Source of the DNA: Escherichia coli
GTDB taxonomy: Bacteria > Pseudomonadota > Gammaproteobacteria > Enterobacterales > Enterobacteriaceae
Strand: one strand, 5' to 3'
DNA length: 64,000 bases
Assembly (NCBI RefSeq): GCF_003334305.1
Contig: NZ_QOWS01000001.1
A program made the position numbers and the translations under genes. Positions 46,742 through 47,343 of this stretch are shown here, piece after piece. The first letter of the stretch is position 1, and each line of letters opens with the position of its first letter. The notes under the pieces were generated by a model, which saw nothing but the letters and a program-made list of their open reading frames with translations, had not been told where the DNA came from and searched no databases.

Positions 46742-47343
46742 TTAATGCCGATTCTTCAGATTATCAATCACTTCTCCGAGATCCAGCCCTTGATCCTGCA
46801 ACAACACCAGCAGGTGATACATCAAATCAGATGCCTCGTTGGTCAGTTCAAAGCGGTCATGTACTGTCGCTGCCAGTGCGGTTTCCACCCCTTCTTCACC
46901 CACTTTCTGCGCAATGCGTTTGGTGCCGCTGGCATACAGTTTGGCGGTGTAGGAGGTTTCCGGGTCGGCTGATTTGCGTTCGGCGAGCAGTTGTTCCAGT
47001 TGATACAGAAACAGCCACTGGTGAGCAGTTTCGCCGAAGCAGCTGCTGGTGCCTTTATGGCAGGTTGGTCCGATAGGATTCGCCAGTACCAGTAGCGTGT
47101 CGTTGTCGCAGTCCGGCGCAATATTTACTACGTTGAGGAAATTGCCCGACGTTTCGCCTTTGGTCCACAGTCGCTGTTTAGTGCGCGAGAAGAAAGTGAC
47201 TTTGCCGCTTTCGATGGTTTTGTCTAAGGCTTCCGGGTTCATATAGCCCAGCATTAACACTTCGCCGGATACCGCGTGTTGCACAATCACCGGCATAAGT
47301 CCGTCGGTTTTTTCCCAGTCCAGTTCGCGGCGTTGTTGTTCTG

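Follow-up and report, generated by a model that had tools for sequence, protein, structure and literature searches.

An Escherichia coli hisI gene with a Klebsiella-type 3' end at the border of an O8-type O-antigen cluster

The hisI gene in the DNA analysed here (a stretch of 64,000 nucleotides from Escherichia coli contig NZ_QOWS01000001.1, hereafter the window) is an interspecies mosaic, in which an E. coli body is joined to a Klebsiella-type tail. Both boundaries of the foreign DNA can be located, one inside the working hisI and the other next to a decayed second copy of the hisI 3' end, and the junction within the working gene is common to seven sampled strains. Very probably, this mosaic arose when a Klebsiella-derived O8 block entered the 3' end of an E. 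coli hisI gene and left the original tail stranded beside wzz.

The intact chimeric gene (46742-47350, minus strand) is a 609-nt open reading frame for a HisIE protein of 202 aa, with the Pfam domains PRA-CH (PF01502, residues 33-105, E = 2e-32) and PRA-PH (PF01503, residues 115-202, E = 1e-24); the protein also matches 6j2l, a HisIE of solved structure (E = 1.5e-126). It has the layout of a bifunctional HisIE, with the PRA-CH domain N-terminal and the PRA-PH domain C-terminal in one uninterrupted frame of ~200 aa at the end of the his operon. The frame overlaps the end of hisF, and hisF, hisA, hisH, hisB, hisC, hisD and hisG lie upstream of it on the same strand. This remainder of the operon (47344-53811, minus strand) is of E. 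coli type, with 71-90% identity to K. pneumoniae in 200-nt windows and a dS against K. pneumoniae of 1.0-1.3 for hisF, hisA, hisH and hisB.

Ungapped alignment with hisI of E. coli K-12 (NC_000913) gave 27 mismatches in 570 positions for nt 1-570 of the gene (95.3% identity) and 17 mismatches in 39 positions for nt 571-609 (56% identity), and the order is reversed against K. pneumoniae O5, to which nt 1-570 are 79.5% and nt 571-609 89.7% identical; K. quasipneumoniae O5-locus hisI likewise matches the last 39 nt at about 90%. The sliding identity thus switches sharply from E. coli-like to Klebsiella-like within the hisI coding sequence, as proposed in the first-pass annotation, which had suspected that the 3' end of the working gene is foreign. 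Its further proposal, a comparison of the 5' half with the 3' half of the gene, is too coarse for this case, the foreign part being just the last 39 nt (46742-46780, minus strand; 12 codons and the stop), and the HisIE proteins that share the C-terminal motif of the window are those of Klebsiella. Informative sites scored with three K. pneumoniae-complex references carry E. coli states up to hisI nt 558, the last E. coli-specific site, and Klebsiella states from nt 571, the first Klebsiella-specific site, and the position of the break was identical with four Klebsiella references. A maximum chi-square analysis with K-12 and K. pneumoniae O5 as parents also placed the break between nt 558 and nt 571 (maximum chi-square = 67.7, a value reached in 0 of 20,000 permutations), with 82 E. 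coli-like and 3 Klebsiella-like sites before the break and 3 and 16, respectively, after it (Fisher p = 3e-13). The E. coli-type part of the gene (nt 1-558; 46793-47350, minus strand; 82 of 85 informative sites E. coli-like) is therefore separated from the Klebsiella-type tail by a crossover interval of 12 nt (46781-46792, minus strand), reading CAAGGGCTGGAT in the sense of the gene, which falls within the stretch of coding sequence in which the breakpoint had been predicted.

That prediction had started from the observation that the intact hisI ends differently from a hisI remnant elsewhere in the window, the latter being closer to the K-12 C-terminus. Both quoted endings are present in the window, as judged by translation of the open reading frames and by BLASTN and TBLASTN, and the statement on K-12 was accurate: K-12 HisI ends LDLTTVIENLRKRHQ (in a longer stretch, QDQGLDLTTVIENLRKRHQ up to the stop) and matches the remnant, not the intact copy. 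The remnant (33676-33816, minus strand), 13 kb to the left of the intact gene, ends LDLTTVIVILRTRHQ, with a longer translation of LTNEVPDLMYRLLVLLQVQILDLTTVIVILRTRHQ up to the stop; its similarity to E. coli hisI is clear to 33783 (hisI nt ~505-612) and weaker to ~33816, and it may extend back to hisI nt ~472 (to ~33795) if a deletion of 11-12 nt is allowed. BLASTN aligned 33718-33784 with 46781-46847 at 83.6% identity, TBLASTN extended the similarity to 33682-33816, and the similarity of the remnant to the intact hisI stops exactly at nt 570. Taken with the sequence downstream of it, the remnant is about 80-81% identical to the K-12 hisI tail and hisI-wzzB intergenic region, and of 13 enterobacterial hisI tails compared with it, those of E. 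coli are the most similar. It also lies in its native position beside the end of wzz: the adjacent wzzB (32502-33482, plus strand; NCBIfam WzzB equivalog, 594.7 bits) is the original E. coli neighbour of hisI, and K-12 has the same arrangement of hisI and wzzB. In strain 600468 the remnant is annotated as a partial pseudogene. Because tails of the TTVIENLRKRHQ type are found in K-12, another E. coli, E. albertii, Citrobacter and Pseudocitrobacter (among the matches listed from species-representative genomes), it is the remnant that has the native E. coli-type tail, which the working hisI lacks.

The sequence between the wzz stop and the remnant stop (33483-33678) is ~100 nt longer than the K-12 hisI-wzzB spacer; its alignment to K-12 falls into two pieces that overlap, as might result from duplication or insertion of a REP-like unit. 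The region around the remnant and the left junction (33600-33960) is 92.8% to 100% identical among 228 carrier genomes, and the remnant region is sometimes annotated as 'pyrophosphohydrolase domain-containing protein', suggesting that less-decayed versions of the remnant exist that could date the insertion.

For the comparison with Klebsiella we used an O3-type locus (L082) and an O1/O2-type locus (L083), found by exact-sequence contig look-up, together with O5-type loci found through the O8-type WbdA: L089-L091 from K. pneumoniae, L092 and L093 from K. quasipneumoniae and L088 from the K. oxytoca group. Positions 33820-54050 of the window align to the K. pneumoniae O5 locus L089 as a single HSP with an identity step at the hisI tail, identity in 200-nt windows being ~90-97% over 34420-46819 and ~80% from 46820 through the his operon, and the genes of the O8 cluster have a dS of 0.23-0.33 against K. 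pneumoniae. The hisI tail is the end of a continuous Klebsiella-like block that also holds a spacer of 38 nt and the entire O8 cluster. This cluster of ABC-transporter type, manC-manB-wzm-wzt-wbdD-wbdA-wbdB-wbdC (34623-46703, plus strand), is ~93% identical to the K. pneumoniae O5 loci. Judged by its genes alone it is of O8 type, with the corresponding gene set and order, a wbdA product of 1213 aa and a methyltransferase-only WbdD of ~425 aa, and in position it adjoins hisI rather than lying between galF and gnd. WbdA falls into a 90%-identity cluster with members from E. coli, K. pneumoniae and K. quasipneumoniae. In strain 600468, whose wbdC-hisI-hisF stretch (1,001 bp) is 100% identical to the window, the PGAP names include 'O8 family' wzm/wzt and wbdC.

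The 38 nt between the end of wbdC and the stop codon of hisI (46704-46741), two genes that converge here, form a spacer with a G+C-rich hairpin, CCCCCGC...GCGGGGG. It is 76-84% identical to the Klebsiella O5 and O3 spacers, which have the same length and also contain the hairpin, and it is unrelated to the K-12 sequence downstream of hisI. A consensus scan of the spacer for intrinsic terminators found none and the hairpin has no T-run; its predicted fold (-19.8 kcal/mol, z = -1.8) is not significant. At the other end, the block begins with a Klebsiella-like non-coding leader upstream of manC (33820-34622, plus strand), which is homologous to the uge-manC intergenic region of L089 from window position 33820 (L089 position 3082) onward and carries the ops/JUMPstart core GGCGGTAG at 34534. 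The leader also contains a 102-aa open reading frame (34041-34349), a hypothetical protein in strain 600468 with no NCBIfam match, and the leader sequence around it is 77-83% identical to K. pneumoniae, less conserved than the cluster.

The window carries two O-antigen clusters in tandem (23685-29419 and 34534-46703), each preceded by the ops motif GGCGGTAG. The first, between galF and gnd, is AT-rich (29.7% GC), encodes Wzx and Wzy of the O46/O134 family and looks complete; the second, between wzz and hisI, is the O8 cluster. Among 5,426 complete E. coli genomes, just 17 cover at least 80% of the O46/O134-family cluster; both clusters are present in strain TUM1887.

In its gene order, its position between wzz/ugd and hisI and its nearest relatives in Klebsiella, the cluster agrees with the O8/O9/O9a clusters of E. 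coli, and its WbdA of 1213 aa has three glycosyltransferase modules, as described for O8 systems; we found no material difference, so the window represents a typical case. The O5 locus of the K. pneumoniae complex (L089-L093) is colinear with the window over the whole stretch that begins between uge and manC and ends with the stop codon of hisI, and it shares with the window the 38-nt spacer, the hairpin and a similar hisI tail. It differs from the window by ~7% nucleotide divergence (dS 0.23-0.33), by a Klebsiella-type hisI body (198 aa, four codons being deleted close to the N-terminus), and by uge upstream of the cluster, where the window instead has wzz and the hisI remnant. The O5-like loci of the K. 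oxytoca group (L088) were rejected as donors, since their clusters are 79% identical to that of the window and their hisI tail differs.

At the left boundary, the homology to E. coli hisI, in a remnant that is ~20% diverged, ends at ~33783-33795, and the homology to Klebsiella starts at 33820. On these coordinates the foreign block sits inside the former 3' end of an E. coli hisI, and 36 nt between the two (33784-33819) are assignable to neither parent. Oddly, an E. coli-like version of hisI nt ~505-570 flanks the insert at either end.

The hisI genes of Klebsiella themselves show where the foreign tail comes from. Those of the K. pneumoniae complex (O5, O3 and O1/O2) are 95-100% identical up to nt 590 in the numbering of the window. 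Their last 19 nt are just 42% identical between O5 and O1/O2 (L089 16016-16612 versus L083 8001-8600), and the C-termini in this comparison read ...NLKSRH and ...NLRARHR. As nt 571-590 are identical in Klebsiella strains with unrelated O loci (L083, O1/O2; L082, O3; L089, O5), this segment is Klebsiella core hisI sequence, and the foreign tail consists of 20 nt of Klebsiella core hisI (571-590), whose presence settles the direction of transfer, followed by 19 nt specific to the O3/O5 locus. In E. coli, the tail was found solely together with wbdC among the matches listed, and while Klebsiella usually has its O locus adjacent to his, E. coli has it there only exceptionally (PMC7685785; PMC6128206). 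Taken with the stranded E. coli tail, these three points show that the DNA moved from Klebsiella into E. coli. The closest Klebsiella loci are just ~93% identical to the O8 cluster (dS ~0.3), so the donor is unsampled or the transfer is old; the label 'Klebsiella' rests on nearest-relative logic and points to a donor in or near the K. pneumoniae complex.

The same evidence bears on two accounts that dispense with such a transfer. One could do without recombination and suppose a local frameshift, or fast drift of a tail that the protein does not need, given that the C-terminal ~12 residues of HisIE are variable among Enterobacterales; yet the K-12 alignment runs through the tail without an indel, which rules out a frameshift as its source, and 17 substitutions in 39 nt stand beside 570 nt at 95% identity, in a tail that matches Klebsiella at 90% and runs on into 13 kb of DNA of the Klebsiella type. 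We give this account next to no probability. The variant tail might otherwise be an old E. coli polymorphism, or the transfer might have run from E. coli to Klebsiella, and here the ~93% identity of the cluster between the genera gives no direction by itself. Such a history is nonetheless very improbable: it leaves the sameness of nt 571-590 in Klebsiella O1/O2, O3 and O5, the restriction of the tail in E. coli, among the matches listed, to genomes with wbdC, the atypical position of the O locus in E. coli and the retention by E. coli of a displaced copy of its own tail all to be accounted for, and each of these fits the entry of Klebsiella DNA into E. coli.

The chimeric junction is widespread. 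A wbdC-hisI-hisF query was covered over at least 80% of its length in 847 of 5,426 complete E. coli genomes, and the Klebsiella query in 850, so that the chimeric hisI tail, which is also present in Klebsiella, is intact in ~850 complete E. coli genomes; this speaks indirectly for retained enzymatic activity and histidine prototrophy. The remnant together with a left junction of the window type was found in just 228 of the complete E. coli genomes. In all listed genomes without wbdC, the match to the window starts at 46781/46782. Base-by-base comparison of seven sampled E. coli strains with O8/O9 clusters revealed an identical tail and an identical junction interval, whereas the hisI 5' part differs from strain to strain, much as alleles usually do in E. 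coli. Varied 5' parts of E. coli type joined to an identical tail in seven strains show ongoing recombination within hisI. A query made of the 3' half of Klebsiella hisI plus the junction detected no E. coli genome with a clearly longer Klebsiella hisI tract among ~850 genomes, as the best full-length match was 88.2% identical, and no longer tract was found in the top match of this query or in the O8 reference strain NCTC9008. Klebsiella-like sites at nt ~504-513 in AR434 and NCTC9008 were discounted, being shared with a non-O8 E. coli allele (L002).

In NCTC9008, which has the same wbdC-hisI junction, hisIE is annotated as frameshifted; its alignment has a single-base gap at nt ~561, within the crossover interval, which is probably an assembly error. 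In strain 167 (NZ_CM132955.1, 13690-20081), an IS1 beside ugd has removed the left part of an O9-type cluster and reduced it to wbdA-wbdB-wbdC; the galF-gnd side holds capsule-like and rhamnose genes. This strain has still preserved the chimeric tail of hisI, and it fits published accounts of residual O8/O9 sequence that persists beside his (PMC6128206).

How the block was joined to the chromosome can be reconstructed in part. In the K. pneumoniae complex this cluster, of serotype O5, normally adjoins hisI directly, and the block that entered E. coli would have comprised the hisI tail, the 38-nt spacer, the O8 polymannan cluster and ~800 bp of leader. The right junction lies in the last stretch of hisI that is near-identical in E. 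coli and Klebsiella, with 56% identity beyond it, and the left junction lies where there is no homology, a pattern from which we infer that the right side arose by homologous crossover and the left side by illegitimate joining; the latter is inferred rather than demonstrated because of the 36 nt (33784-33819) that belong to neither parent. In the sequence of events that we propose, homology within hisI, or deeper in the his operon, would first have held a Klebsiella fragment in place, an illegitimate join at E. coli hisI nt ~475-505 would have closed the other side, and later exchange with ordinary E. coli alleles would have replaced the Klebsiella hisI sequence up to the end of homology. The right join being in frame, in the last hisI block common to both genera, the product is predicted to be a functional HisIE with a Klebsiella C-terminus, while the displaced E. 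coli tail would have been left beside wzz and decayed into the remnant. Against this account stand the smaller number of genomes with the left junction (228, versus ~850 with the right one) and its rearrangement by IS1 in one strain.

It is about as likely as not that the nt 559-570 boundary is the limit of a later E. coli by E. coli trimming of a longer Klebsiella tract, rather than the point of the first crossover. The presence of nt ~505-570 on both sides of the insert is not predicted by one-step replacement and therefore requires either re-conversion or a duplication at insertion. The second of these belongs to a competing view, to which we assign a little less than an even chance, in which 46781-46792 marks the original crossover, a homologous exchange in the last 12-40 nt of shared hisI, and the overlap of 66-95 nt was duplicated at insertion. 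The uniform interval in all seven sampled O8/O9 strains argues for it, as do the lack of a clearly longer Klebsiella tract in ~850 genomes, with a best match of 88.2% and a narrow spread, and the end of the similarity between remnant and intact gene exactly at nt 570. However, replacement by a linear fragment would not put nt 505-570 on both sides unless a further duplication is assumed, the boundary falls just where the hisI genes of E. coli and Klebsiella stop aligning, a place at which repeated exchange among E. coli would stall as well, and O8/O9 strains show clear signs of shuffling in the 5' part of hisI.

Two kinds of known recombination resemble what is seen here. Homology-facilitated illegitimate recombination, reportedly described by de Vries & Wackernagel in 2002 and by Prudhomme et al. 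in 2002, likewise has one end in shared sequence, here hisI, and the other joined without homology. It differs in that it was defined in the laboratory in naturally transformable bacteria, in that microhomology is expected at the illegitimate join, where the left junction of the window is too decayed to display any, and in that it does not by itself account for the overlap of hisI nt 505-570, which calls for one more step. Housekeeping genes of mosaic structure beside the O-antigen locus of E. coli and Salmonella (gnd and the his-proximal 'bastion of polymorphism') are said to have been described by Nelson & Selander and by Milkman. In these, as in hisI, a housekeeping gene carries a breakpoint because it hitch-hikes with the exchange of O antigens, but in the window the foreign segment of hisI measures just 39 nt and comes from another genus.

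The transfer itself is already known. The E. coli O8/O9/O9a clusters lie between gnd and hisI and derive from Klebsiella O5/O3 according to a review (PMC7685785), which credits Kido et al. 1995, Amor & Whitfield 1997 and Sugiyama et al. 1998 (J Bacteriol 180:2775), and the hisI junction is the right-hand end of this published transfer of Klebsiella O5/O3 clusters into E. coli O8/O9. No description of the hisI junction or of the hisI remnant was found in the open-access full text searched; the base-level mapping of the junction may or may not be new, but in both cases it adds detail to an event already on record. It reveals neither a new mechanism nor a new kind of element. For a textbook transfer of O-antigen genes between species, it does narrow the right-hand end to 12 nt inside a biosynthetic housekeeping gene, and it explains both the 202-aa HisIE with a non-E. 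coli C-terminus in about 16% of complete E. coli genomes and the small 'pyrophosphohydrolase domain' pseudogene beside wzz in some of these.

The extreme 3' end of hisI may also be a recurrent docking boundary for O-antigen cassettes across the Enterobacteriaceae, a tentative idea that we hold with appreciably less than even confidence. Two nested boundaries occur there, since the switch between O-locus types in Klebsiella falls at nt 591 and the Klebsiella segment of the E. coli O8/O9 strains starts 20 nt upstream of it, and in Klebsiella, too, the last ~6 codons of hisI seem to go with the type of O locus. If this idea holds, the last codons of a housekeeping gene would travel with a mobile locus, the HisIE C-terminus would mark O-locus ancestry, and the variability of this C-terminus among enterobacteria would be driven by the exchange of cassettes and not by drift.
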